Positions 24,332-36,101 are shown, counted from the first letter of the stretch. The stretch: 64,000 nt of DNA from a bacterium (GCA_963674595.2 CAXXFV010000027.1:256001-320000), one strand, 5' to 3'. The notes: generated by a model not told the origin, from the letters alone. Made by a program: numbers and translations.

Positions 24332-26716
24332 TTATATGCCTTTATTAATTTTAACAATAATCATTGTCATGTCGTCGTGTTGCTCTTTTTTATTCATAAA
24401 TGTGAAAACCTGCTGTGTAACATTTTTTAAAATATCGCTGGAATTCAAATTTGAATATTTATTTAACAATTCACAAATTTTTTCTTCTCCAAACACCTCG
24501 GATGATGAATTCATTGCTTCTGAAAAACCGTCCGTATAAAAAACGAAAATATCCTGACTTTTCAAAGCAATACTCTTTTCCTGGATAATATTATCGAAAA
24601 TTTCTCCCTTGTCCAATCCCATTGCCAAACCTTTGGGACAAATGATATTACATTTACCATTAAGATTATTTAATGTAATAACAGGATTATGTCCTGCACG
24701 GGAAAAGCAAAAAGTCATTTTTTCAAAATCAAAAACACCATAAACCATACTGATAAAATGCCCGCGTTTTACATTTTCATAAAACAACGAGTTTATTTGC
24801 ATTAACACCTGTTTTGGTGATAACATAAATTTTGTCAGGGAGCGCAAAAATCCTTTTGTCAGAGTCATATAAAAAGCTGCGGAAATACCTTTACCAGATA
24901 CATCGCCAATGGCGAGTCCTAATTTATTTTCCTCGAAAACTACAAAATCATAATAATCACCGCCCACGTCCAAAGCAGGAATACATGTAGCGGCTATATC
25001 AACTCCATTCACTTTAGGATTAGATTCCGGTAACAGGCCCAACTGCACACGTTTGGCAATTTCAAGCTCTCTCTCCAACCTTTCTCTTTCAAGCATGTGT
25101 TTTACATGGCTCGGGGTGTATTTGTTGAGAACATCGGGCTGTAAATCAAAACGAAGAGCATAAAGCGAAATGCCCGCCACAATTAAAAGTAATCCCAAAA
25201 TACTGAATCCATAAAATACAAGATGGATATTTCCTGAAAAGAGATATTTTCCGGAATCCAACAGTAAAAGGAAAACAAAATGTGCTGTAATAGATGATAA
25301 TAAATCAATACGTATAAAGAGCAGCGTAAAGGTTAATCCCAGAATTGCTGTAATTAACATGGAAACCGGTAAAGGAAAAGATACAAAACTAACAAATACA
25401 CTGGCAAAAACACCCCAAAAAAGGAACATAGTAAGGACCAGCCATCTTTTGCGCCCTATATATCTTGCCAAAATTGAAATTGGAAAAAGTATAAACAAAA
25501 ACTGTTCCCAACAAACGGATTGTATAGCAGAGGCTATATTGTAAAACACGGGCACGTCACGGTAATAAATATTAACCTTGCCAGTCCACTCTGACAAATC
25601 GATACTTGAAATATTACGCAAAAGGAATAAAACACCGGTTATAATAAAAACCAACAGAGTGCCAAAGGTAATTCCGGAGAACAATGAATCGCCAAACCGA
25701 CGATAGAAAATTTTTCCACCGGATAATGTATCAAAAGTAACGAGTTTTCCTCTCCAAATTTCTCTAGAAAGGGAGTCTGTTGTTGAAACACTGACTAGAA
25801 AAATTATTCCCAAAACAAGCGGTAAAAATGTCAGGGAAATAACATAATTAATAATATCTAATGATTCCGGATTGATGTACAAGGCACTGGTAAGAGTAGC
25901 TATAATTACAATAATTGTAACAGGAAAAGCGTTTTTAAAACTAAGCTCATCCTTGCGCAGTTTTTTTATAAATATGGTAACAATAAATACTATAAACAGT
26001 ACCAGCACACTGATTAAACCGGTAACCTGATAAATTTTTTCGTAATGATTATCTTCAAATTCAGGAATATCATAAACAACTTTATATCCTGCAAGATTAG
26101 TCCCTGATGTATAAACTTTGACATAACTTTTAATCTTTTCAAACTGTTTGAATTTATATTTTAAATCATAATCAACATATTGCTCTTTAACAAACCGTTC
26201 AAAAGATTCAAATTGACAGTCCTTATTAAGAGACAAATAGGCAATTAACGAATCAGCCACATTCATCGCCAGTGTTTCTGAATAGTTTTTTATATTTAAA
26301 CTGTCTTTATAAAAATCAACATGAAATCCCAACATACCATAATCATTCAGATCAATGGTTATTTTTTCAATTCCTTCAAGTTTTTTATTTTTTTGATGTT
26401 TATGTTTCTTGTGGTCCCAGGTAAAGTGCCAGTAAAAAGTTGGAAATTGATTATATCTCAAGTCCCTTGCAATATCGCCGGTGTAATTTCTTTCAATAAA
26501 CTGGTCCAAATTTTTATGGTATTTAAGCAGTATATCAAGCTCTTTTTCATGTACCGGAAAGCCAAGCAGATTTAACTCTTTCGCAGCCGTTGAAATGTAC
26601 TCATTTTTAGAATATTTGAAATTCGGGGTAAAATAAACGTGTTTATAAAGTTTGAAAAAACAACAAACACTTGCTATTATAATTGATAAAAATATTATTA
26701 ATTTAAATTTATTCAA
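24332..26716 (-). CDS. membrane PP2C (SpoIIE-like) phosphatase with an extracytoplasmic domain and a multi-TM region
   Basis: N-terminal TM, ~200-aa soluble domain, ~9 TM segments, then VGGDYYD, DVSGKG, RAGHNP, YTDG, DDMT. Confidence 0.9.
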   Translation of the reverse strand: MNKFKLIIFLSIIIASVCCFFKLYKHVYFTPNFKYSKNEYISTAAKELNLLGFPVHEKELDILLKYHKNLDQFIERNYTGDIARDLRYNQFPTFYWHFTWDHKKHKHQKNKKLEGIEKITIDLNDYGMLGFHVDFYKDSLNIKNYSETLAMNVADSLIAYLSLNKDCQFESFERFVKEQYVDYDLKYKFKQFEKIKSYVKVYTSGTNLAGYKVVYDIPEFEDNHYEKIYQVTGLISVLVLFIVFIVTIFIKKLRKDELSFKNAFPVTIIVIIATLTSALYINPESLDIINYVISLTFLPLVLGIIFLVSVSTTDSLSREIWRGKLVTFDTLSGGKIFYRRFGDSLFSGITFGTLLVFIITGVLFLLRNISSIDLSEWTGKVNIYYRDVPVFYNIASAIQSVCWEQFLFILFPISILARYIGRKRWLVLTMFLFWGVFASVFVSFVSFPLPVSMLITAILGLTFTLLFIRIDLLSSITAHFVFLLLLDSGKYLFSGNIHLVFYGFSILGLLLIVAGISLYALRFDLQPDVLNKYTPSHVKHMLERERLERELEIAKRVQLGLLPESNPKVNGVDIAATCIPALDVGGDYYDFVVFEENKLGLAIGDVSGKGISAAFYMTLTKGFLRSLTKFMLSPKQVLMQINSLFYENVKRGHFISMVYGVFDFEKMTFCFSRAGHNPVITLNNLNGKCNIICPKGLAMGLDKGEIFDNIIQEKSIALKSQDIFVFYTDGFSEAMNSSSEVFGEEKICELLNKYSNLNSSDILKNVTQQVFTFMNKKEQHDDMTMIIVKINKGI

Positions 26717-26728
26717 CAGATATAAATC

Positions 26729-27988
26729 CTATTCCAAATGATGTTCAACTTCAATTTGATATGGAGATGCGATATTGTCAAAAGATTTTTCAATATGGCC
26801 GAATTCGGAAATTTTAAAAACTTTACCCTGTACGTCATCACAAACAAGACAAGAATTATCAAACTCATTTACCACAATGGATACCGGATGTGAAAATTCG
26901 TTTTTAGACAACAGAAAACCATTTTCACTATATCTTGTTACATTATATTTTTCATTTGAAGAATTGTATTCAATTGCCCAAACTGATCCGGTTTTTTGAT
27001 CACAGGCTAATTTTCTAATCCAGGTAAAATCTCCTGAAATCGTATTAATATGGTTGGCGTATAAATCAAATACTAGAATTCGATTTGCATCAGCCGCCCA
27101 AATTACCTGATTCTCTTCACAATAGACAATATCAGACGGATCTGTAAATAACGGTTCACTTTGACGTCTGATTTGACCAACAGAAGAAATTCTAAATAAT
27201 GATAAACTCTGTTCATCAACTACCCATAAATCCTGCCGCCTTTGGTCCATATCAATAAAACATGGTTTGGGTATAAAATTAAATTCCATGAGTTGTGTAC
27301 CAGATGCATCAAACTTTTTAATCAGTCCCTGACTTTTTTGAATGGTAAAAAAATTTCCATTCCTTTGATCAATTACAAAATCATTTACCTGGTCCAGATT
27401 ATAAACGACATGTGTATAAATACCATTTTCAGATATTTTATAAAGCGAGTTTGAAATATCACTATAAACCCAGGCAGCTCTTTCCTGCACACTTGAATGC
27501 ATCAAAATCGGGTAACTAAAACTACCGAATGAGAAAATCGGATATTGAAGATCATGTGTCATCCTGTGTAAAGTACCAGATTGATAATCCAAAATCCATG
27601 AATAGGTCGGACCCGGTTCAATATCCAATGTATCAGTAGGCGGTGTTTCATAATCCTTAATATGGGCTGTAATATAATAATCATAGGATGTACCATACTC
27701 GACATTGTAATCCGTAAAACTATTTTGGCCTGGTTGAACCGTAGAAATTTGTGTAAATATAGTACCCGGAGCAATCAAACGGTAAACAGAAATAGAATCA
27801 ATTCCTCTAAAATCCAGGTAACTCCAACCCAACTTTACTGATTTTCCAAAAGACAACACAGAAAAATTTTCTATACGTCCGCTTGTTTCCGGATTTTTTG
27901 GATCAAGAGGATTGTTTCGTTCTCTATCGGAACAACTCAGTATAACCAAAATAGATGATAAAACGATTATTTTCAAAAAACTTTTCAT
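26729..27988 (-). CDS. lipoprotein with an FN3-like domain and an NHL/beta-propeller-like region
   Basis: Lipobox ILSC, RNNPLDP, FTDYNVEYGTSYDYYI (FN3-like), repeated ~40-aa blades (PxDIxxD...WxxD). Confidence 0.7.
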   Translation of the reverse strand: MKSFLKIIVLSSILVILSCSDRERNNPLDPKNPETSGRIENFSVLSFGKSVKLGWSYLDFRGIDSISVYRLIAPGTIFTQISTVQPGQNSFTDYNVEYGTSYDYYITAHIKDYETPPTDTLDIEPGPTYSWILDYQSGTLHRMTHDLQYPIFSFGSFSYPILMHSSVQERAAWVYSDISNSLYKISENGIYTHVVYNLDQVNDFVIDQRNGNFFTIQKSQGLIKKFDASGTQLMEFNFIPKPCFIDMDQRRQDLWVVDEQSLSLFRISSVGQIRRQSEPLFTDPSDIVYCEENQVIWAADANRILVFDLYANHINTISGDFTWIRKLACDQKTGSVWAIEYNSSNEKYNVTRYSENGFLLSKNEFSHPVSIVVNEFDNSCLVCDDVQGKVFKISEFGHIEKSFDNIASPYQIEVEHHLE

Positions 27989-28127: not shown

Positions 28128-28679
28128 TTAAATATCTTGTTCACTAAATACAATAGCTGAAAATTTATATATAGTTGTATCCGGATTTTTCCATTCATCT
28201 AAATTAAGACCGGCTTTTCGGCATGTTTGCTGTAAAAACATGTCACGGTCCCAATTGTATTCAACAGGTACTTGTGGCAACAAAACACCGGAATTTGGAA
28301 ATTTCTCAATCAAAAGACCGTGCCGGCCAATTTCAATTTCTTCAACATCACTTACCTTTTCCAGAGGAGTCAGCACAGAAATTTCAATTGTTAAATCATC
28401 AACTTCATTAAAAGAAACAGGTGTAAAACGGGGATCACGTAAGGCTGCGGCTTGAGCCATATCAGTTATTGTCTCCAGCAGGGGTTTAAAAGCCTGTATA
28501 TAACCGATGCAACCACGTAATTCTTTGTTTTTGCGAAGAGTAACAAATGCTCCGCACTCTTTATTTAAAACAGGGTCATCCGACGAAAACTCTGGTAAAG
28601 GTTTTTTACTGGTCACACTTTTTATCGTTTCACGCGCAATATGTAAAAGCTCTTTTTTTAAGGAATCATCAATAATCAT
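28128..28679 (-). CDS. amrA: AmmeMemoRadiSam system protein A (AMMECR1 domain), no signal peptide
   Basis: GAFVTL, LRGCIG, DPRF, EISVL, LLPQV, KAGL. Confidence 0.93.
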   Translation of the reverse strand: MIIDDSLKKELLHIARETIKSVTSKKPLPEFSSDDPVLNKECGAFVTLRKNKELRGCIGYIQAFKPLLETITDMAQAAALRDPRFTPVSFNEVDDLTIEISVLTPLEKVSDVEEIEIGRHGLLIEKFPNSGVLLPQVPVEYNWDRDMFLQQTCRKAGLNLDEWKNPDTTIYKFSAIVFSEQDI

Positions 28680-28694
28680 ATTTCTGCTCCTGTT

Positions 28695-30197
28695 TTACTT
28701 GCTTTTATTTTCACCAAAAACCTGTGTTCGATATACCCAAAACTCTGCTCCGTTTTTCCAGGCATTTGAAGGTAAACCGGCTTTACGACATAAACTTGTC
28801 ATTTCCTCATCAACACTTTTCCAGCCTGCCTGAATTGGGACCTCGGGCAGATATGTGGCACTGCGTCCATTCTTTTTTAAAATAATACCATGCTCGCCCA
28901 TTTTAAATTCAGCTATTGAATTAATTTTATATACGTTCGTTAAATAAACAGATATTTTTATTTCTATTTCATCCAGTTCATCAGGAGACAACGGCGAAAA
29001 GCGGGGATCACCAAAAGCAGCCGCAACCGCCATTTGCGGCACAAGTTGATATAAAGGCAGGCTGGACTCATGCTGCCCAATACATCCACGGAGTTGTCCG
29101 TTTTTAGTTAGCGTTACAAAAACGCCTCGTTTTTCATTTAAAACAGCGTTATCCGTTTTGAATTCAGGAATAGATTTGGTTTCCATATAACTTTTTATTG
29201 CCTGTCCGGCTAATTTTAACAACTCGTTTTGCAGATTTTTATCAATTTCGCTATACTCCGTATGTTCCTTTTGTTTGGTAAAAACAACAGCGCCATAACC
29301 GACAACGTATCCCTCCTTTTGGCCTGTTACTTTAGCGGAATTCGTCCTGGTAATAATTTGTGCATGAGTTGCCCCCATTTCTTTTAATGCTATTTGTAAA
29401 ACAGTTAAAGGACCGCTGCCGCATAGCTGAAATTTATTATTTTTTACGCCATTATAAAAATTTTCTGGATCACATCCCTGAATGGCAGCCAACGTGGAAT
29501 TGTCGGAATTTTCACAATCTGTAACAGAATAACCATGATATAAATCAGAACTGGCGATGATTAACGTTTTTTCAGGATCAATAACATCGGCAAGGGTTTT
29601 GCCGATTTGTTCACAAACATTCCAGTTATACTGCCCGATAACAATAGGTACAATATTTACATCAGGAAAAATTGTTTGAATAAACGGAAGCTGAACTTCA
29701 AGTGAATGCTCATTAGGGCCGTGACCGTTTTCTGAAAAAGAAATGTATCGGCATTTGTCCACTAATTTTTGCGCTGTTTTTTTATCGATCAAAGACGTTC
29801 CCAGAGGTGTTTTGTAAGCGTCTCCCGGATATATAGAAGCTCCCTGAAAAGGATCACGATGGCTTGGCGCTAAAATAACAATCAATTTATAAGAATCGGA
29901 TTGGATCTGCTTATAACCTGCTGCGGCTGTTTTGCCGGAAAACGTATAACCGGCATGTGGAACAACCATTCCGTAAATATGTCCATCATCAGAAATGGCG
30001 GCTGATTCTTTTAAAAGTGTGGAAATATAACCTTTTAACTCGGCAGGATCACCGGGATAGAACCTGTCGGCAACCGCAGGAGGCCGGATATGGTCTTGTT
30101 TATTCTGCGGATCAGCACAAAAAGCTGACGACAATAATAAAATAACTGTAAAAAAGTATAATATTTTTGAATGATGCACAAGATGTATTGATTTCAT
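28695..30197 (-). CDS. amrB: AmmeMemoRadiSam protein B (MEMO) fused to an AMMECR1 domain, with a predicted signal peptide
   Basis: RPPAVADRFYP, PHAGY, PSH, EHSLEVQLPF, SSDLYH, VVGY; C-terminal LRGCIG/DPRF/KAGL. Hydrophobic N-terminus ILYFFTVILLLSSAFCA. Confidence 0.92.
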   Translation of the reverse strand: MKSIHLVHHSKILYFFTVILLLSSAFCADPQNKQDHIRPPAVADRFYPGDPAELKGYISTLLKESAAISDDGHIYGMVVPHAGYTFSGKTAAAGYKQIQSDSYKLIVILAPSHRDPFQGASIYPGDAYKTPLGTSLIDKKTAQKLVDKCRYISFSENGHGPNEHSLEVQLPFIQTIFPDVNIVPIVIGQYNWNVCEQIGKTLADVIDPEKTLIIASSDLYHGYSVTDCENSDNSTLAAIQGCDPENFYNGVKNNKFQLCGSGPLTVLQIALKEMGATHAQIITRTNSAKVTGQKEGYVVGYGAVVFTKQKEHTEYSEIDKNLQNELLKLAGQAIKSYMETKSIPEFKTDNAVLNEKRGVFVTLTKNGQLRGCIGQHESSLPLYQLVPQMAVAAAFGDPRFSPLSPDELDEIEIKISVYLTNVYKINSIAEFKMGEHGIILKKNGRSATYLPEVPIQAGWKSVDEEMTSLCRKAGLPSNAWKNGAEFWVYRTQVFGENKSK

Positions 30198-30212
30198 TTT
30201 TCCCTCTACAGC

Positions 30213-31355
30213 TTATTTCCAAATTCCGGGTATTGTGTGCCGGCATTTTGGACATTTACCATCCTGAAGGTTATTTTCAAGAATCGAAAATCCGATTCGG
30301 CGAATCAAAACAGTTTGGCAGTTTGGACAATAAGTACTTTCTCCCGGGTCACCGGGTACATTTCCAACATAAACATATTGTAAACCATTATCAAGAGCAA
30401 TTTGCCTCGCACGTTTTATGGATTGGACCGGTGTGGGCGGCACATTTTTCAAACGATATTGCGGATGAAACCGGGAAAAATGGATCGGCGTTTCCGGCCC
30501 TAATTCTTTATAAATCCATTTACTTAACGCTTCCAATTCCTTGGGATCATCATTTTGTTCGGGAATAACCAGATACACTATTTCCGTCCACATATTTTCC
30601 GATTTTAAGAGAACCAGTGTATCCAAAACCGGTTTGAGCGTACCGGCTACCAACTCTTTATAGAATTTTTCAGTAAATGCTTTTAAATCAATTTTAACCG
30701 CATCTAAAACTTTGCACAGGTCCCGCATGGGTTCAGGATTAATATAGCCATTGGAAATCATTACACTTTTTACATTCTGTTTATGTCCGGCGACGGCAGA
30801 ATCATACATATATTCCGTAAAAACCACGGGTTCTGTATAGGTATAGGCAATCGTATGACATTTTTTATTACGGGCAGCCAGGGCCATATCATCCGGTAAA
30901 AGCCGGAAAGAACGAATCTGTTCCGGTCTGGATTGAGAAATTTCCCAATTCTGGCAAAATTTGCACATAACATTACAACCAACAGTTGCCACTGAAAAAG
31001 CATTTGTACCGGGTAAAAAGTGGAACAAGGGCTTTTTTTCAATGGGATCAATATTTGCTGAACACGGATTTCCGTAAACAAGCGTATAATAGGTCCCGCC
31101 ATGATTTTCCCGAACACCACAATACCCTCGCTCCAGGTCATCAATTAAACACTCACGGGGACAGAGTTTGCATTGAATTTTTCGATGGTCCAGCTTTTCA
31201 TAGTACCTTGCTTCAACAAGTTCAGAGTCCGACGAAGCAGCAGCGAGCTCAGATGAAAACATCGGACACCCGGAAGCGAGCAAAAAACAGCCGCTTTTTA
31301 TAGAATCTTTTATAAATTCTCTTCTTTGCATTGTTGCTGATCTCTGTTTATACAT
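30213..31355 (-). CDS. amrS: AmmeMemoRadiSam radical SAM enzyme with a twin-arginine signal
   Basis: CKLCPREC...CGVR, DPIEKKPLFHF, GCNVMCKFCQNWEISQ, YTYTEP, C-terminal CxxC...CxxC. N-terminal QRREFIK; alternative start at 31331. Confidence 0.93.
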   Translation of the reverse strand: MYKQRSATMQRREFIKDSIKSGCFLLASGCPMFSSELAAASSDSELVEARYYEKLDHRKIQCKLCPRECLIDDLERGYCGVRENHGGTYYTLVYGNPCSANIDPIEKKPLFHFLPGTNAFSVATVGCNVMCKFCQNWEISQSRPEQIRSFRLLPDDMALAARNKKCHTIAYTYTEPVVFTEYMYDSAVAGHKQNVKSVMISNGYINPEPMRDLCKVLDAVKIDLKAFTEKFYKELVAGTLKPVLDTLVLLKSENMWTEIVYLVIPEQNDDPKELEALSKWIYKELGPETPIHFSRFHPQYRLKNVPPTPVQSIKRARQIALDNGLQYVYVGNVPGDPGESTYCPNCQTVLIRRIGFSILENNLQDGKCPKCRHTIPGIWK

Positions 31356-32358
31356 TTATTATTTGAATCTTTTCGGGATCAGATGTCCCAAGTTTGTGCT
31401 GATTATCCGAAGCAGTAAAAATATAATACGGCTCGCGTCCTGTTTCTTTGAGCGATTTAAAACCGTTTTTCAGCCGTTGTTGATCAATAATCTGTAACCC
31501 ATAATAATCCATTGCAACCATATCCACAGCCGCAATGACCGAATCCATCTGCCAGGTCCATTGCGGCATATAGGGAGGTCCGCCTTCATATTGCGGCGTC
31601 AAGGCATCACAAATCGTTAAACGGGTTTTGTTTTTAATATCGGAAAACATATTTACATCAGCTACATAGGGATTGCCAAAATCATCATGATATTTATTGG
31701 GATTATTGATAGCACCGAAAAAATTTTTCAGTGCCATGCTGATGCCGACAATACCATGGTCTTTTAATATCGGTAAATTAATGACGGCAGTACATTGGTT
31801 GTGCAAAATTCGTGAAACAAGACTGGCAGCAGAGCCAAATTCAAAAATCTCTCGTGTATAACCACTTTGGTCATTGCCATAATATTGAACTTTTTTAGAA
31901 CCATAATATATATTATAACCGGCCCGTTCAAGGTCCCTGTTCATTCGGTCCCAGACAATAATATTTCTTTTGGGAACACCAACGGATAACAAATTTTCAA
32001 CGACTGAATTTACGATATCCGGATGCGTGGAAAGCCCTTTTCCGGCCAGACAGTTTACTTTTAAACCTACGATATCATCAGGTGAAAACAGAGTTTGCCA
32101 AACTTTAATATTTTTAACACCGAACAAATTTTCTACAGCCGTATCCACCATTTTTTTAACGGCATCACCCGACACACTGTTCCCATGAATACGCATATCA
32201 CTTCGATGTGAGGTAACAACTTTTGAAGTGTTCTCCCCTTTTTGATGTATTGAAAAATCAGACTGGTTTTGCATACAGTTGGAGCCGGACATCGTTCCCA
32301 TAATGCCGGTGCACCCGACACATACTGATCTTAAAAAATGACGTCGATTTATCACCAT
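31348..32358 (-). CDS. DUF362 domain protein with a twin-arginine signal
   Basis: NRRHFLR Tat motif; VGLKVN, THP, INLPILKDH, ALKNFFG, DMVAMD. Confidence 0.85.
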   Translation of the reverse strand: MVINRRHFLRSVCVGCTGIMGTMSGSNCMQNQSDFSIHQKGENTSKVVTSHRSDMRIHGNSVSGDAVKKMVDTAVENLFGVKNIKVWQTLFSPDDIVGLKVNCLAGKGLSTHPDIVNSVVENLLSVGVPKRNIIVWDRMNRDLERAGYNIYYGSKKVQYYGNDQSGYTREIFEFGSAASLVSRILHNQCTAVINLPILKDHGIVGISMALKNFFGAINNPNKYHDDFGNPYVADVNMFSDIKNKTRLTICDALTPQYEGGPPYMPQWTWQMDSVIAAVDMVAMDYYGLQIIDQQRLKNGFKSLKETGREPYYIFTASDNQHKLGTSDPEKIQIINV

Positions 32359-32369
32359 AGCATTTCCTT

Positions 32370-32403
32370 AAAAAAAAACCGTGACCTTGAACAAGACCAC
32401 GGT
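32370..32403 (-). terminator. intrinsic terminator downstream of the REC-PAS-GAF gene
   Basis: Minus strand ACCGTGGTCTT-GTTC-AAGGTCACGGT (11-bp stem with 2 GU pairs) followed by a T run. Confidence 0.7.
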
Positions 32404-32443: not shown

Positions 32444-34576
32444 TTATCTTAAAAATCGTTCCACAATTTTTTTAAATCCGCCTCTTTCATAATCAGGCTC
32501 ATCATTCATATCCCGAATATCATCCGCTTCGTTTATAAAATCTTCCTGCTCATCAATTCCAAACGGCTCTGGTTGAGGTCTCTGTTCAGGTTCCGGCTCT
32601 TCTTCAATAGAAGGTAATGGTGAACGTTGTTTAGCCGGCTGAGAGCTTCCCATTTGTTCTTTTGCCTGTACATACATAACCCGGTTATCAATTGCTATGG
32701 CAATTTGGTTTGCCAAAATTTCCAAAGTATGGATCGTATCGGTTGAAGGCAACCGGCTATCCTGAGGATCATCGGCCATCATAAAACCGATTATTTTACC
32801 TTCCCGGGATTTTATTGGGACCAGCAAAAGCCCCCAATTCGGCCAACCGTCTTCAAAACGGCTGTTGCTTTCAGCGCCATAGTAAATTCGCTTCATTGGG
32901 CGAAGAATGGATTCATCCTGGTTGATAAAATAGGATTTACGCTGTCTGTATTCATCCTTGAGTAAGTCACTGAATTGTTTTAAATCGAAATTCAACTCAC
33001 GGAGCTGATTTTGTTTAATCTTATCATCACATGCAACCGCTTTGGTTTCCAACATTCCGCTGTTTTTACTTATAAGAACAAGAGAAACCAAATTAAACTC
33101 TAAAGAAAATTTAACAGACCAAACAACTTCTTTTAACAATTCGCTTAAACTGAGATATAACTTGAAGATATTGCTTGTTACCAGAATCTGGCGCATACGC
33201 CGAGATTGACGTTCGATATTTGAAAAACGGTAATAATTTTCTACGGCCATTGAAATCATTTTTCCAAACAATTCAAGATTATAAAAAGTGGAACGTGTGG
33301 GATAATGACTTGGTAATGGATCATCCAGAGAAATATAACCAAAAGTATTGTTTTGAGAATCGGTCAAGTTTAACAAAACCAAATCACGTTTATGCCATTT
33401 TGTTAAAGGACGTCGCTGCTGTGTCCTTCTTTCCGGCATATCTGGACGGTCATCAGAGTGGCCATCCCGCTGATCCTGTGAATGGTATATAACCTTGATT
33501 TTAAACCTGTCCGCAAAAATTCTGTTTATAACCTCCTGGGGTACTTCCATTGTCCGTTCATCAACTGTCCCGGACTCGTTAAAACCAACCATTGCCTGTT
33601 TAATGAATACATGTTTTCGCCTATCCAGCAAGGCCACTGTTGATCTTTTAAAGCCAAAAACCTGACTGACAACCTGGGCCATTCGTTTTAACAAAACATT
33701 CAACGGTTCGGAATAGCTCAACTGAATCAGGCTGGTCACTTCGCTGACCATTTTATTTTGATCAATCTGAATTTTTTGTATGGCGGTTTCATCAACTTGT
33801 TTTTTAATAACCAAAATACTTCCGCGGAAACCGATAATTTGGTCCGGTTGAATTTCATCGCGTAAAATTCGCATTCTTAATTCTACAGGAAGGCGTTCAC
33901 CGGTTTTATTAACCAATGTTAAAGTAAATGTATAAGTTGATCTTTTTTCTGTTACATCAAAAACTTTGATAAAAAAATCATCCGCATCCTGCTTTGAGAT
34001 CAAATCAAGAATCGTAAGTTCCAATAATTCATCTTCAGAGTATCGGGTTAATACCTGAAGTTGTTTATTGGCAGACAAAAACCTGCCCCTGCGATCACAA
34101 ATAAAATTACCGGCATCTTTATCCGGAATATAATTTCTAACAGGTTTATCTGTTGATTTCATAAAAGAAGCTGCCTGGGGGACTCCCTTTAAATTTTTTA
34201 TTTTTGGTTTTTCATGCCCGGCAGCGCGTTTAATAGAATTTGACAGGGATGACAAATAACCCTTTTTCTTGATAACAGTATCAAACAAATTATCGCCTGA
34301 TGACTGTAGGACACTATCAGATTCATTTTCATTAATTGTCAGAATGATTGGAAGATCTTGCGCCATTGATTCGAGACGGGAAAAGAATAGATCAAAGTCC
34401 CCTTCTGCAAGTTCACTGTCTAGAACAATTACGTCATAGCTGTTTCGTTCTATGCGTTGCTCTATTTCATCTATAGACGTTGCTCCATCCGGTTGGTACT
34501 CTGTATTTTGAGCACGCAACATCTGTTTGGTTGCTTCCAAATAAGAAATATTTGGGTGTGCAATTAATATTTTCAT
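32444..34576 (-). CDS. REC-PAS-GAF-GAF signalling protein with no recognisable output domain
   Basis: Atypical receiver (VIVLDSEL), PAS (DRRGRFLSANKQ...YSEDELL), two GAF-like regions, acidic Pro-rich tail. Confidence 0.75.
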   Translation of the reverse strand: MKILIAHPNISYLEATKQMLRAQNTEYQPDGATSIDEIEQRIERNSYDVIVLDSELAEGDFDLFFSRLESMAQDLPIILTINENESDSVLQSSGDNLFDTVIKKKGYLSSLSNSIKRAAGHEKPKIKNLKGVPQAASFMKSTDKPVRNYIPDKDAGNFICDRRGRFLSANKQLQVLTRYSEDELLELTILDLISKQDADDFFIKVFDVTEKRSTYTFTLTLVNKTGERLPVELRMRILRDEIQPDQIIGFRGSILVIKKQVDETAIQKIQIDQNKMVSEVTSLIQLSYSEPLNVLLKRMAQVVSQVFGFKRSTVALLDRRKHVFIKQAMVGFNESGTVDERTMEVPQEVINRIFADRFKIKVIYHSQDQRDGHSDDRPDMPERRTQQRRPLTKWHKRDLVLLNLTDSQNNTFGYISLDDPLPSHYPTRSTFYNLELFGKMISMAVENYYRFSNIERQSRRMRQILVTSNIFKLYLSLSELLKEVVWSVKFSLEFNLVSLVLISKNSGMLETKAVACDDKIKQNQLRELNFDLKQFSDLLKDEYRQRKSYFINQDESILRPMKRIYYGAESNSRFEDGWPNWGLLLVPIKSREGKIIGFMMADDPQDSRLPSTDTIHTLEILANQIAIAIDNRVMYVQAKEQMGSSQPAKQRSPLPSIEEEPEPEQRPQPEPFGIDEQEDFINEADDIRDMNDEPDYERGGFKKIVERFLR

Positions 34577-34787: not shown

Positions 34788-36101
34788 TTAAACATTACTT
34801 GGCACAACATAAGGTTTTCGATAATTGCGCTTTAGCATGTCATTGGCCTCATCATCACTTACAAATCGTTCACTGGATGGGTCAAATTGTAATTGACGTT
34901 GTAAACGATAAGAAATATTTCCCAGATGAGCCAAAGCAGAAGACAAATGAGCCGTTTCAACAGGTCCATTCAAGATTGATTTATCATGGGCCCTTACAGC
35001 TTTTATAAAATTAGCAAAATGATCGCCGCCTTCTTTACGGCTTGGGCCAGGTTCATATTTTTCACGTCCAACACTGATAAAAGTTTCATAAGAACTATAA
35101 CCTTTTACAAGCATATAACCTTTACTGCCGTAAAATATGTTACCAGTTTTAACGCCGTCTTCATAATTTGTGTTCCAGTGTCGAACTTCAAACTGTATCA
35201 TTTTCTTTTGTTTGGGATAATTATAAACAGATGTTAGAACTTCGGGGGTTTCTTTACAATCATCCCATAAAAATTTTCCACCCATTGCCGTTACCTGTTC
35301 AGGCAGCCCGACATCCAGTCCCCACATACACATATCTGTTTCATGTATACCCTGGTTTCCGACGTCTCCGTTGCCAAAATCCCAATGCCAGTGCCAATTG
35401 TAATGGACCAGATTACGGGTAAAAGGCCTTTCCTGCGCCGGACCCAGCCACAAATCATAATTCAGTCCTTCAGGGACCGGTTCAAATCCTTTATCTCCAA
35501 TATCAGGACGCCAGCGAAAAACCAATCCACGGGCCATATAAACATCACCAATAATGCCGTTACGCAATTGCTGAACAGCTTCCTGTAAAGCGGCAGAGCT
35601 GCGTAATTGCACACCGTGCTGTACAATTCGATCGTATTTTGTGGCAGCTTCAACCATTTTCCGGCCTTCCCAAATGTTATGGGATCCGGGTTTTTCTACA
35701 TAAACATCTTTACCGGCCTGGCAGGCCCATATTGTTGCTAATGCATGCCAATGATTTGTTGTTGCAATACTTACAACATCTATATCTTTATCTTCATATA
35801 CTTTTCTAAGGTCTTGTTCCAGTTTTACTTTTTTATCATATTTTTCTTTAAATTCAGTTTCACGTTTTTTTAAAACCATTAAATCAGGATCACATAGCGT
35901 GACGACGTTAACATTCTCCAAATTCATGTATCCCTTTACATGATTATTTCCGCGTCCGTTTAATCCCAAAACCGCAACATTGATTCTGTCATTTGCGCCT
36001 TTTGCAGATGCCGGTAAAATCATTGGAGCTGTAACAGAAGCCGCTGCAACAACACCTGCTGATTCTTTCATAAAAGTCCTACGTGAAATTGTTTGATCCA
36101 T
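34788..36101 (-). CDS. Tat-exported Gfo/Idh/MocA family oxidoreductase
   Basis: SRRTFMK Tat motif, GLNGRG, NHWH, VYVEKP, WLGPA. Confidence 0.92.
   Translation of the reverse strand: MDQTISRRTFMKESAGVVAAASVTAPMILPASAKGANDRINVAVLGLNGRGNNHVKGYMNLENVNVVTLCDPDLMVLKKRETEFKEKYDKKVKLEQDLRKVYEDKDIDVVSIATTNHWHALATIWACQAGKDVYVEKPGSHNIWEGRKMVEAATKYDRIVQHGVQLRSSAALQEAVQQLRNGIIGDVYMARGLVFRWRPDIGDKGFEPVPEGLNYDLWLGPAQERPFTRNLVHYNWHWHWDFGNGDVGNQGIHETDMCMWGLDVGLPEQVTAMGGKFLWDDCKETPEVLTSVYNYPKQKKMIQFEVRHWNTNYEDGVKTGNIFYGSKGYMLVKGYSSYETFISVGREKYEPGPSRKEGGDHFANFIKAVRAHDKSILNGPVETAHLSSALAHLGNISYRLQRQLQFDPSSERFVSDDEANDMLKRNYRKPYVVPSNV

Follow-up and report, generated by a model that had tools for sequence, protein, structure and literature searches.

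In a sediment-type KSB1 bacterium, four genes on the minus strand at positions 28128-32358 of the window (the whole stretch of DNA analysed here, 64,000 nucleotides) appear to encode a second AmmeMemoRadiSam system that is targeted for export; the ordinary cytoplasmic set is present as well, dispersed over the genome. We hold this reading with somewhat better than even confidence. Conserved export signals on the radical SAM enzyme of this system (AmrS) and on its partners suggest, as judged from sequence comparisons, that radical chemistry has been sent to the periplasm. The preliminary description of this DNA had proposed such a rerouting and is partly supported; what it overlooked is that the host genome also encodes, elsewhere, a canonical AmrS (338 aa) and AmrB (285 aa), both leaderless.

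The operon and its setting

The features on which the argument rests are the following.

28128-28679, minus: stand-alone AMMECR1 (AmrA), 183 aa, no signal; Pfam 193.9 bits, TIGR04335 186.8 bits
28695-30197, minus: fusion of Memo (AmrB) and AMMECR1 (AmrA), 500 aa, MKSIHLVHHSKILYFFTVILLLSSAFCADP
30117-30197, 29286-30080 and 28716-29219, minus: within the fusion, the Sec-type signal, Memo and AMMECR1, respectively
30213-31355, minus: AmrS, the AmmeMemoRadiSam radical SAM enzyme, 380 aa, or 372 aa from a second ATG at 31331
30954-30977, minus: CX3CX2C radical SAM cluster motif, CNVMCKFC, its cysteines invariant in the AmrS alignment
31218-31355, minus: Tat-type leader of AmrS, MYKQRSATMQRREFIKDSIKSGCFLLASGCPMFSSELAAASS, 46 residues; RR codons at 31320-31325
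31348-32358, minus: DUF362 protein, 336 aa, beginning MVINRRHFLR; PF04015 69.9 bits
31687-31704, minus: NPNKYH loop of DUF362, residues 219-224, centre of the predicted AmrS interface
32269-32358, minus: Tat-type leader of DUF362, MVINRRHFLRSVCVGCTGIMGTMSGSNC; RR codons at 32341-32346
32378-32403, minus: terminator-like hairpin, 11 pairs and then a T run (consensus scan and sequence)
32444-34576, minus: response-regulator receiver, PAS and GAF protein, 710 aa (Pfam Response_reg, PAS and GAF matches)

The tight packing of four genes noted in the preliminary description is borne out by the reading frames located at these positions, with an 8-nt overlap or 16-nt gap at the first junction and 15-nt gaps at the two that follow. 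A terminator-like hairpin separates the regulator gene from the DUF362 gene, so the four genes probably have a transcript start of their own; AAGGAA lies 6 nt ahead of the DUF362 ATG. The Response_reg/PAS/GAF gene is found upstream of the operon on the same strand in all 20 related loci, and this conserved neighbour may encode a regulator of the four genes.

The family assignments of all four proteins are secure by Pfam and NCBIfam profiles. AmrS scores 403.9 bits against TIGR04337 (cut-off 220) and 66.5 bits against Pfam Radical_SAM, and since the TIGR04337 match begins only at residue 49 (residues 49-379), the N-terminus of AmrS is an extension. CNVMCKFC is invariant in 21 of 21 aligned AmrS sequences, in which an N-terminal four-Cys motif and C-terminal Cys pairs are also kept. 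The nearest solved relative is the PFL-activating enzyme 3c8f (E 1.3e-6); AmrS falls below the activase cut-offs, with 58.5 bits vs 231.75 for TIGR02493 and 39.7 vs 174.35 for TIGR02494. The fusion reaches 201.7 bits with Memo (PF01875), 168.9 bits with AMMECR1 (PF01871), 252.2 bits with TIGR04336 (cut-off 26) and 163 bits with TIGR04335 (cut-off 99). Only two AMMECR1 matches occur in the host genome, the fusion and the stand-alone gene, which are 43% identical over the AMMECR1 domain and both keep the RGCIG and DPRF motifs described for AMMECR1 in PMC2034487. A further point missed in the preliminary description is that the stand-alone AMMECR1 carries no signal; it is leaderless in each of the 13 (of 20) related loci in which it was found; most likely this fourth gene serves the cytoplasmic AmrS and AmrB and completes the dispersed cytoplasmic set.

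Export leaders and their distribution

Tat-like motifs lie near the N-termini of AmrS (QRREFIK, within MQRREFIK...LAAAS) and DUF362 (NRRHFLR), as had been remarked at the outset. The twin arginine, followed by F or Y, is invariant in 20 of 20 AmrS and 19 of 19 DUF362 orthologues from five families of the order, the DUF362 set having RRxF throughout (19/19). The 15-35 residues after it differ in length and sequence among orthologues and end in AxA-like sites, and a fixed RR with a variable stretch and such an end is the signature of a signal peptide. By inspection, the h-region of AmrS, SGCFLLASGCPMFSS, has 15 residues, followed by LAAAS, and the DUF362 leader has an uncharged stretch of 23 residues; both leaders thus agree with the TATFIND rule for Tat signals, which asks for at least about 13 uncharged residues in the h-region and for an AxA-type c-region. 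Charged D and K residues precede the h-region of AmrS, the hydrophobicity of which is no more than moderate. Against the TIGR01409 profile (cut-off 16.7 bits), the AmrS of the window has no match and its DUF362 leader scores 14.8 bits, as compared to 26.9 bits for an oxidoreductase near the operon; among the orthologues, 5/20 AmrS and 7/19 DUF362 proteins score above the cut-off, and 14/20 AmrS proteins match at E<=1. The host genome encodes TatC (TIGR00945, 222.8 bits vs a cut-off of 132.7), and RR leaders are borne by five of its eight readable DUF362 copies, a frequency that points to an active Tat route for the DUF362 fold. Alignment and inspection lead us to regard the leaders of AmrS and DUF362 as real, conserved and Tat-like.

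The Memo-AMMECR1 fusion bears a signal of another kind: its n-region is positively charged, and a short hydrophobic segment leads to an AxA-like site ahead of the conserved R(K/P)PAVAGQFYP. The Sec-like signal ascribed to it earlier looks cleavable in 20 of 20 orthologues: by inspection, these and the window copy conform to the SPase I rule (h-region of 10-17 residues, small residues at -3 and -1). There is thus a division of labour, with RR leaders on the iron-sulfur protein and the LarA-like protein (see below) and a Sec signal on Memo-AMMECR1.

How widespread signal-bearing variants might be had been left as a question; leader-bearing AmrS turns out to be an entire clade with members in many phyla. 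Across 40 relatives AmrS falls into two classes. In a tree of 132 sequences (130 near-complete members of the 150 nearest 50%-identity representatives, plus the leader-bearing and leaderless AmrS of this genome), 28 have RR leaders; 27 of these fall, together with four near-variants, into a single clade of 37 sequences (SH-like support 96), whose neighbours are membrane-domain fusions. Of 80 genome loci from Planctomycetota, Armatimonadota, Caldisericota, Desulfobacteraceae and other groups, 65 pass a strict RR rule, and six more have RR. As far as the tree goes, leader-bearing AmrS is one clade spread over many phyla, Planctomycetota, Armatimonadota and Desulfobacterota among them.

In the orthologues, AmrS, the Memo-AMMECR1 fusion and DUF362 all carry signals, and DUF362 is adjacent in 19 of 20 related loci. 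Metagenome relatives include Memo-AMMECR1 fusions with clear lipoprotein signals beside AmrS proteins that lack the extension (for example L144, L154, L196, L216), so that export of Memo-AMMECR1 need not go with export of AmrS. Triple Memo-AMMECR1-AmrS fusions have a Sec-like hydrophobic segment at their start (P0156), and it is difficult to see how such proteins would be loaded with iron-sulfur clusters. In other AmrS proteins the enzyme is joined to multi-pass membrane domains (P0129, P0134, P0137). Other relatives pair leaderless or TM-anchored AmrS with lipoprotein Memo-AMMECR1 and DsbD_2+Fer4_5 membrane proteins. The wider contexts (membrane proteins, lipoprotein Memo-AMMECR1 fusions, cytochrome c biogenesis genes) fit the non-RNA, envelope-type target put forward in the preliminary description.

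A predicted partner and the place of the radical step

In 22 of 80 metagenome loci the gene immediately upstream of that for AmrS encodes DUF362. The predicted structure of DUF362 (pLDDT 83.4, residues 1-41 disordered) finds its best Foldseek matches among LarA-like nickel-pincer enzymes (top 9q3k_A, E 4.6e-6, TMq 0.44), nearly all of the 18 matches at E<=1e-3 being LarA-type, with TM-scores of only 0.38-0.45 and identities of 9-14%. The model thus predicts a LarA-like fold. A search of the 97.6%-complete genome for larC (PF01969), the gene of the nickel-insertion protein, had no match, although the control search matched 6 of 14 genomes; DUF362 is therefore unlikely to hold a nickel-pincer cofactor formed in the known way. 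The protein is also without a glycyl-radical motif.

That DUF362 is a specific partner of AmrS, as suggested earlier, draws support from its adjacency in the related loci and from the complex modelling that had been called for. The predicted AmrS-DUF362 complex has an ipSAE of 0.79 (0.78-0.80 over three runs) vs 0.01 for the best control; 116 of 157 solved complexes attain this mark, as do 2 of 215 mismatched pairs. The three runs share at least 96% of contacts, with partner pLDDT of at least 92; a search for a solved structure of a similar complex found none. The model puts the NPNKYH loop of DUF362 into the cluster cleft of AmrS, with a predicted contact between the Met inside CNVMCKFC and Lys222, a docking that is new here. 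NPNKYH is invariant in 20 of 20 aligned DUF362 sequences and occurs exactly in 22 of 23 AmrS-adjacent metagenome DUF362 proteins vs 0 of 5 distal paralogues; it is absent from all seven other DUF362 copies of the host genome that were aligned. The loop thus seems to mark AmrS-adjacent DUF362 proteins only, and DUF362 is a predicted binding partner, and possibly a substrate, of AmrS.

In the scheme that we prefer, AmrS and the LarA-like DUF362 would fold in the cytoplasm, where AmrS would receive its iron-sulfur clusters and probably SAM, and would bind each other there, with the NPNKYH loop seated in the AmrS cleft that the cluster-binding motifs flank. The LarA fold carries a cofactor in LarA, and the Tat pathway moves folded, cofactor-loaded proteins; the twin-arginine leaders would carry AmrS and DUF362 across the membrane by that route. 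Memo-AMMECR1, without an iron-sulfur cluster, would leave unfolded via Sec and take up metal outside, and the three proteins would act in the periplasm on an envelope-associated, non-RNA target. Alternatively, AmrS might activate DUF362 itself in the manner of a glycyl-radical activase, turning over once, for which the SAM that it had carried out would suffice. Observed directly are the identities of the genes, the conserved leaders, TatC in the genome, the clade and the co-occurrence with DUF362; export, the complex of AmrS with DUF362, which is a model, and the place and nature of the radical reaction are what we infer. We know of no SAM pool in the periplasm and of no reductant there with a low enough potential, and action of AmrS on DUF362 in the cytoplasm followed by export of the pair would be equally simple.

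This leads to the strongest rival, which we consider less likely: AmrS would be a cytoplasmic maturase that modifies or activates DUF362 at the NPNKYH loop inside the cell, using SAM and a cytoplasmic reductant, before Tat export of DUF362 with or without AmrS. In that case the leader of AmrS would be there for co-targeting or for quality control, and the radical chemistry would stay inside the cell. To our knowledge SAM and reductant are available inside the cell only, which counts in its favour, and the modelled loop at the cluster cleft resembles an enzyme-substrate pose. Six metagenome loci have a leaderless DUF362 beside RR-bearing AmrS, and the HXS defence system, as described in PMC13128918, follows the same logic, with HxsB and HxsC in the cytoplasm and a signal on the effector only. 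However, a purely cytoplasmic enzyme needs no leader, yet the RR of AmrS is invariant across phyla, and the leader persists in F0-AmrS-F1 loci that lack DUF362. If Memo-AMMECR1 leaves unfolded via Sec, moreover, any action of AmrS on it would have to follow export.

Less probable again is a tether at the membrane, in which the RR leader would stay on AmrS as an anchor, or be a vestigial Tat signal of the kind known from NarG, and hold AmrS on the cytoplasmic face next to a membrane-embedded substrate (lipid, isoprenoid or quinone) that exported Memo-AMMECR1 reaches from the other side. The relatives with leaderless or TM-anchored AmrS, lipoprotein Memo-AMMECR1 and DsbD_2+Fer4_5 proteins speak for it, as do the fusions of AmrS to multi-pass membrane domains, and Burroughs and colleagues in 2019 reportedly tied Memo contexts to isoprenoid modification. 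But the strict RR, AxA-like c-regions and short h-regions are more what one would expect of Tat signals that are cleaved than of anchors, vestigial Tat signals are not known to keep the twin arginine, and the RR leaders common among the DUF362 copies of the genome also weigh against it.

An annotation artefact, with true starts downstream of RR and ordinary cytoplasmic enzymes, is very improbable: the window copies do have an in-frame ATG at AmrS residue 32 and three ATGs after RR in DUF362, and the TIGR04337 profile starts late, but the alternative starts are not conserved, RR is invariant across the order and phyla, 15 of 21 AmrS genes have no ATG downstream of RR ahead of the core, and downstream starts are excluded in 2/21 AmrS genes (L038, L051) and 2/20 DUF362 genes (L051, L054) because no ATG, GTG or TTG lies between RR and the conserved core.

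Comparison with known systems

Our literature search found no report of an AmmeMemoRadiSam variant with export signals, nor of a radical SAM enzyme as a Tat substrate, and we know of none among the known Tat substrates. DUF362 and DUF2088 belong to the same Pfam clan, CL0471 (PMC11770544). This clan and the Foldseek matches link the modelled DUF362 to the LarA/DUF2088 racemases, from which it is set apart by low TM-scores and identities and by the failure to find LarC in the host genome. Tat-exported iron-sulfur proteins and hitchhiker complexes (hydrogenase small subunits, DmsAB, PaoABC) resemble the present case in having a twin-arginine leader on a cofactor protein and, in some AmrS relatives, a partner (DUF362) without a signal. 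PaoABC is a documented Tat hitchhiker heterotrimer (PMC4273604). A leaderless DUF362 next to RR-bearing AmrS, as in the six metagenome loci, is, in gene layout, the classic hitchhiker arrangement, and as such it also speaks for the scheme that we prefer.

Anaerobic sulfatase-maturing enzymes are radical SAM maturases of exported proteins and, like HxsB and HxsC, link a radical SAM enzyme to a periplasm-bound protein; here, unlike in HxsB/HxsC-type maturases, the leader is on the radical SAM enzyme itself, whereas in the account of PMC13128918 the signal is on the substrate only and HxsB and HxsC act in the cytoplasm. Among the glycyl-radical activases, PFL-AE is the nearest solved relative of AmrS; the model has a flexible partner loop at the cluster cleft, and one SAM per activation would suffice. 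PFL-AE binds its substrate loop in a comparable manner. These activases are, as far as is known, cytoplasmic; AmrS is not a member by its TIGR02493 score, and DUF362 lacks their radical motif.

For the canonical AmmeMemoRadiSam system (TIGR04337/TIGR04336/TIGR04335), RNA base modification is proposed in PMC2034487, and the cytoplasmic location implicit in that proposal appears at odds with export-type leaders on AmrS and on the fusion. As in the canonical system, all three families are present here above cut-off and adjacent, and AmrS keeps the CX3CX2C, four-Cys and C-terminal Cys pairs; unlike it, AmrS has a Tat-type leader, Memo-AMMECR1 has a Sec signal, DUF362 is added and the host also keeps a separate leaderless set. 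If our reading is true, iron-sulfur radical chemistry that is known only from the cell interior would have been relocated to the periplasm.

The operon and its N-terminal leaders

A leader-bearing AmmeMemoRadiSam operon is confirmed in the window, where four tightly packed genes occupy positions 28128-32358 of the minus strand and are securely assigned, by the matches of their protein sequences to Pfam and NCBIfam profiles, to the families listed here together with the flanking features.

Features of the operon and its flanks (window positions)
24332-26716, minus strand: 794-aa protein; N-terminal half a large multi-helix membrane part, C-terminal SpoIIE/PP2C phosphatase domain (PF07228, 149.6 bits)
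26729-27988, minus strand: predicted lipoprotein (MKSFLKIIVLSSILVILSC), 419 aa, without Pfam match, 3' of the operon
28128-28679, minus strand: stand-alone AMMECR1 (AmrA), 183 aa; TIGR04335 186.8 bits (cut-off 99)
28695-30197, minus strand: fusion of Memo (AmrB) and AMMECR1, 500 aa; TIGR04336 252.2 bits (cut-off 26), TIGR04335 163 bits (cut-off 99)
30213-31355, minus strand: AmrS radical SAM enzyme, 380 aa (372 aa if the second ATG, at 31331, is the start); TIGR04337 403.9 bits (cut-off 220)
31348-32358, minus strand: DUF362 protein, 336 aa; PF04015 69.9 bits (Pfam)
32378-32403: terminator-like hairpin that splits the operon from an upstream response-regulator/PAS/GAF gene
34788-36101, minus strand: GFO/IDH/MocA oxidoreductase with a strong Tat signal (TIGR01409, the NCBIfam Tat-signal profile, 26.9 bits on the N-terminal 40 residues); shows similarity to the BT_2158 glycoside 3-dehydrogenase family, at 176.6 bits far under the 750 cut-off

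Because the TIGR04337 match to AmrS begins only at residue 49, the first ~46 residues of this protein (MYKQRSATMQRREFIKDSIKSGCFLLASGCPMFSSELAAASS) represent an extension. DUF362 begins with MVINRRHFLRSVCVGCTGIMGTMSGSNC and the Memo-AMMECR1 fusion with MKSIHLVHHSKILYFFTVILLLSSAFCADP, and the stand-alone AMMECR1 is without a hydrophobic N-terminus. The preliminary description was right about the twin arginines (RR) of DUF362 and AmrS and about the Sec-like signal of the fusion, and passed over the leaderless state of the fourth protein. Among 40 relatives from the window's order, AmrS falls into two classes, the first with 57-71% identity and an alignment start at query residues 4-29, the second with 42-49% identity and an alignment start only at about residue 40-50. 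In the 20 first-class loci that were fetched for orthologue comparison, AmrS has kept the motif [S/T/N/D]RRx[F/Y] in every case and DUF362 has kept RRxF in 19 of 19; in each of the 20 fusions a positive n-region leads into a short hydrophobic segment and an AxA-like site, after which comes the conserved R(K/P)PAVAGQFYP, and the stand-alone AMMECR1 is leaderless in 13 of 13 orthologous copies. When the orthologues are aligned (21 sequences of AmrS, 20 of DUF362), nothing in the leader is invariant except the two arginines and, in DUF362, a Phe; a hypervariable, gap-rich stretch comes next and then the mature domain, with a mean column identity of 71% for AmrS and 61% for DUF362. As judged from these alignments, such a pattern is that of a signal peptide under selection.

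TatC is encoded in the genome. The backing that TIGR01409 gives to Tat signals is mixed: the AmrS leader of the window has no match and that of DUF362 scores 14.8 bits, under the cut-off of 16.7 (the neighbouring GFO/IDH/MocA oxidoreductase served as control), and the orthologue leaders match at E<=1 in 14 of 20 AmrS and 12 of 19 DUF362 proteins, with 5 and 7 of these totals, respectively, above the cut-off. At least one cysteine is found in the h-region of the AmrS leader (window 31218-31355) in 19 of the 21 aligned sequences, often as GxxC...C, and Planctomycetota relatives have GAGACGLCA-like strings there; conserved cysteines inside a signal peptide are unusual. Upon inspection of the alignment, a lipoprotein signal was rejected for this leader since the conserved Cys, 8-10 residues past the RR and ahead of the hydrophobic stretch, comes too soon to be that of a lipobox.

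Distribution and gene neighbourhoods of leader-bearing AmrS

A further TIGR04337 gene lies on a different contig of the window's own genome (6.6 Mb, 97.6% complete), and its 338-aa product begins directly at the conserved core. This leaderless AmrS (L004:7635-9209, contig C23) lies 9 nt 3' of the gene for QueH, epoxyqueuosine reductase (PF02677, 229.7 bits), on the same strand, a placement that fits the old RNA-modification proposal for the cytoplasmic system. Two more contigs encode, respectively, a leaderless AmrB of 285 aa and a weaker Memo relative, and the only two AMMECR1 matches in the genome are both inside the window operon. The simplest reading is that there are two sets, namely a cytoplasmic triad with scattered genes, to which the window's leaderless AMMECR1 belongs, and an export-targeted set that consists of Tat-AmrS, Sec-type Memo-AMMECR1 and Tat-DUF362.

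The names borne by close homologues put the organism in candidate division KSB1. In the window's phylum, AmrS was detected at E<=1e-60 in 135 of 151 sampled genomes (including one, G115, with a leaderless-type match only) and the leader-bearing type (E<=3.5e-122, 48-100% identity) in 95 of the 151, the boundary between types by E-value being fuzzy for the most distant families of the phylum. When 1.84 billion representatives were searched without a profile, there were 8048 matches at E<=1e-3, and the best 150 of these, together with the two AmrS of the own genome, yielded 132 sequences with a near-complete domain: 28 have an RR leader, 78 no extension, 14 a long N-terminal fusion (many beginning with membrane helices), 3 a TM/Sec-like start and 9 some other N-terminus, among them RK or KR forms of the RR motif. 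In a tree of the 132, built with FastTree only and rooted at its midpoint, 27 of the 28 RR-leader sequences fall within one 37-row clade (SH-like support 96) with named members from Desulfatibacillaceae, Armatimonadota and Victivallales; the membrane-fusion forms neighbour this clade, and the own leaderless copy lies in a separate one, all of whose members are without the extension. Three clade members were then used to scan species-representative genomes, which gave 474 relatives, and the best 80 of these are mostly from Planctomycetota and Armatimonadota, with Caldisericota, Desulfobacteraceae, Verrucomicrobia, Chloroflexota, Firestonebacteria, Kuenenia and others also represented. Under a strict rule, 65 of the best 80 have RR with at least 12 uncharged residues, and the rest have RR with a charged h-region (6), KR or RK (2), a plain TM anchor (3) or a truncated N-terminus (4). 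On the question of spread that the preliminary description had raised, the leader-bearing forms make up a clade with members in many phyla.

Two further fusions stand in the tree among sequences without the extension. P0156 is a single-chain Memo-AMMECR1-AmrS of 835 aa with a Sec-like hydrophobic start, an odd feature in a protein that has to hold iron-sulfur clusters, and the related 651-aa P0146, without such a start, is apparently truncated at its N-terminus.

Within the window's order the layout of the operon is fixed, with the upstream regulator and the Memo-AMMECR1 fusion present in 20 of 20 loci, DUF362 in 19, the stand-alone AMMECR1 in 13 and the downstream lipoprotein, of unassigned family, in the same position in 6. 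Other phyla show a different layout, with Memo/AMMECR1 in just 4 and DUF362 in just 1 of the 80 loci (best of 474). In those 80, a signal-bearing family without Pfam match (F0) is encoded directly upstream of AmrS in 60, and F1, a polytopic membrane protein of ~780 aa that contains a spermidine-synthase-type domain (PF01564), adjoins AmrS, mostly directly downstream, in 28; near AmrS there are also a Tat-leader protein of unassigned family in 9 Armatimonadota loci, a DsbD_2+Fer4_5 membrane protein in 3 loci and CcsA in 3. Neighbours in high-GC loci were clustered with a codon-position GC filter against shadow ORFs. The order F0, AmrS, F1 is the commonest context of Tat-leader AmrS outside KSB1 (L059-L138, e.g. 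L062:4480-10223), F0 is often duplicated, and a putative ECF sigma-like gene, so named from its sequence, stands ahead of the cluster in 4 loci. By crude hydropathy, F1 has 5-8 helices before its SAM-binding-type domain, which would face outward in 18 loci and inward in 10. The own genome encodes an F1 homologue that is unlinked to the operon, and a single F0 query had no match there.

A metagenome scan with relatives nearer to the window's subclade provided 80 further loci, with Memo(+AMMECR1) near AmrS in 46, F1 in 33, the DsbD_2+Fer4_5 protein in 7 and DUF362 directly upstream of AmrS in 22, there being enough upstream sequence in 55 of the 80; layouts such as DUF362-AmrS-Memo-AMMECR1-F1 recur. 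The N-terminus of Memo-AMMECR1 is hydrophobic in 44 of 45 evaluable loci, and the AmrS beside these 44 is of RR type in 20, of TM type in 5, unevaluable in 8 and of class 'none' in 11, a class that takes in KR variants as well as genuinely leaderless proteins. Truly leaderless AmrS adjoins fusions with clear lipoboxes in loci such as L144, L154, L196 and L216, so that the AmmeMemoRadiSam system can straddle the membrane; such layouts support an envelope-linked target, yet they weaken the case for a radical step outside. A DsbD_2+Fer4_5 membrane protein is encoded directly upstream of TM-anchored AmrS in L123, L136 and L137, and the homologues P0129, P0134 and P0137 have a multi-pass membrane domain, DsbD/CcdA-like by eye, fused to the N-terminus of AmrS. 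Membrane partners of the DsbD type may be an electron route to AmrS.

DUF362 as a predicted partner of AmrS

The structural model of DUF362 (pLDDT 83.4, pTM 0.84), in which residues 1-41 are disordered as expected of a leader, has its best matches among LarA-like nickel-pincer enzymes (9q3k_A, E 4.6e-6, TMq 0.44; 18 matches at E<=1e-3), in agreement with the Pfam clan that DUF362 shares with DUF2088 (PMC11770544). A search by DUF362 sequence found no solved structures at useful E-values. Extracellular fusions of DUF362 to CBM9 and dockerin are on record (PMC5742341). There are nine DUF362 matches in the own genome, with an RR leader in 5 of 8 readable copies, and since LarC (PF01969) was not found in this 97.6%-complete genome, its LarA-like DUF362 proteins probably have no nickel-pincer cofactor that comes from the known pathway.

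Modelling of AmrS with DUF362, a check suggested in the preliminary description, came out in favour of a complex. With the mature forms of both proteins and our own orthologue alignments, the ipSAE was 0.79 (runs 0.78, 0.79, 0.80) versus 0.01 for the best control, with contact agreement of at least 96% between runs and partner pLDDT of at least 92; the ipSAE mark is reached by 116 of 157 solved complexes versus 2 of 215 mismatched pairs, a calibration that is only rough with user-supplied alignments. As no related complex has been solved, the score is unlikely to reflect memorised structures, and the model supports, as a prediction, the binding of DUF362 by AmrS. The predicted interface comprises, on the DUF362 side, the invariant KDH (201-203), NNPNKYH (218-225) and GGPP (259-262) and, on the AmrS side (numbered from the second ATG), residues 64-72, from the part of the N-terminal four-Cys motif bounded by Cys61 and Cys71, as well as Met122 within the CX3CX2C motif and residues 133-138; Lys222 of DUF362 is modelled in contact with AmrS residues 70, 122, 133 and 229. 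All 20 sequences of the DUF362 alignment share the NPNKYH loop unchanged. Of 23 evaluable DUF362 proteins encoded next to AmrS in the metagenome loci, 22 have it exactly and the remaining one has NPHKYH; the loop is missing from 5 of 5 distal DUF362 paralogues of those loci and from all seven other own-genome copies that were aligned. By sequence comparison, this loop tracks AmrS adjacency. Six metagenome loci combine a leaderless DUF362 with RR-AmrS and F1, which is the arrangement classically seen in Tat hitchhikers.

Possible site of action and known systems

The prevailing view strictly confines radical SAM enzymes to the cytoplasm because of their dependence on SAM, on an electron donor of low potential and on oxygen-sensitive clusters, and a coherent multi-phylum clade with invariant twin-arginine leaders, often with exported partners, challenges this view. 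No radical SAM enzyme with a Tat signal or in the periplasm is described in the literature searched, which has most subscription journals outside its coverage, and the name AmmeMemoRadiSam is absent from titles and abstracts there. The interpretation offered in the preliminary description is partly borne out: the leaders, the clade and the DUF362 partner (by linkage, NPNKYH and model) stand, and the location and the chemistry are what we infer from them. On balance we lean towards a reading in which AmrS and DUF362 would mature and pair in the cytoplasm and be exported jointly by Tat, Memo-AMMECR1 would next be exported by Sec, and the exported set would then have either DUF362 itself or something associated with the envelope as its target. 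True export would predict the division of routes seen among the leaders, Tat-type for an iron-sulfur protein and a LarA-like protein and Sec-type for Memo-AMMECR1. An activase-like single turnover, which is our own suggestion, would use SAM carried out along with AmrS, so that no periplasmic SAM pool would be needed. An exported version cannot have tRNA or rRNA as its target, and on the DUF362 side a single loop, NPNKYH, stands out as a concrete candidate for the place of action.

Among the alternatives to this co-export, the one that fares best has DUF362 matured in the cytoplasm and then exported, which we regard as possible, if on the unlikely side. It has the logic of the documented HXS system, in which the signal is confined to the effector and the radical SAM enzymes work within the cytoplasm (PMC13128918); the window operon differs in that the radical SAM enzyme itself bears a leader. 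That the AmrS leader acts as a membrane tether, a reading that draws on the layouts straddling the membrane, seems to us improbable. An annotation artefact is essentially excluded, and true starts downstream of the RR, which the preliminary description had named as fatal to its proposal, do not hold, as there is no ATG, GTG or TTG between the RR and the invariant core in 2 of 21 AmrS and 2 of 20 DUF362 genes (no ATG in 15 of 21 AmrS genes, with alternative starts elsewhere that vary in position).

Co-export by Tat can be extended to a joint reading that we consider unlikely as a whole, in which an ancient radical SAM clade would work outside the cytoplasm, the loaded AmrS holoenzyme and LarA-like DUF362 would leave via Tat, the carried SAM would serve for a radical or covalent modification at the Lys of NPNKYH in the periplasm, and the resulting catalyst would, with exported Memo-AMMECR1, remodel an envelope molecule. 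If it were true, SAM radical chemistry, with some supply of SAM and electrons, would exist in the bacterial periplasm.

AMMECR1 and MEMO1 have human homologues that are linked to disease, and the functionally orphan AMMECR1/Memo/AmrS triad gains a new handle. For the canonical AmmeMemoRadiSam system, Balaji and Aravind proposed RNA base modification with the cysteine of the AMMECR1 RGChG motif as catalyst (PMC2034487). That system is a triad defined by gene neighbourhood. The same group (Burroughs et al. 2019, in JBC) has reportedly extended the contexts of Memo towards isoprenoids.
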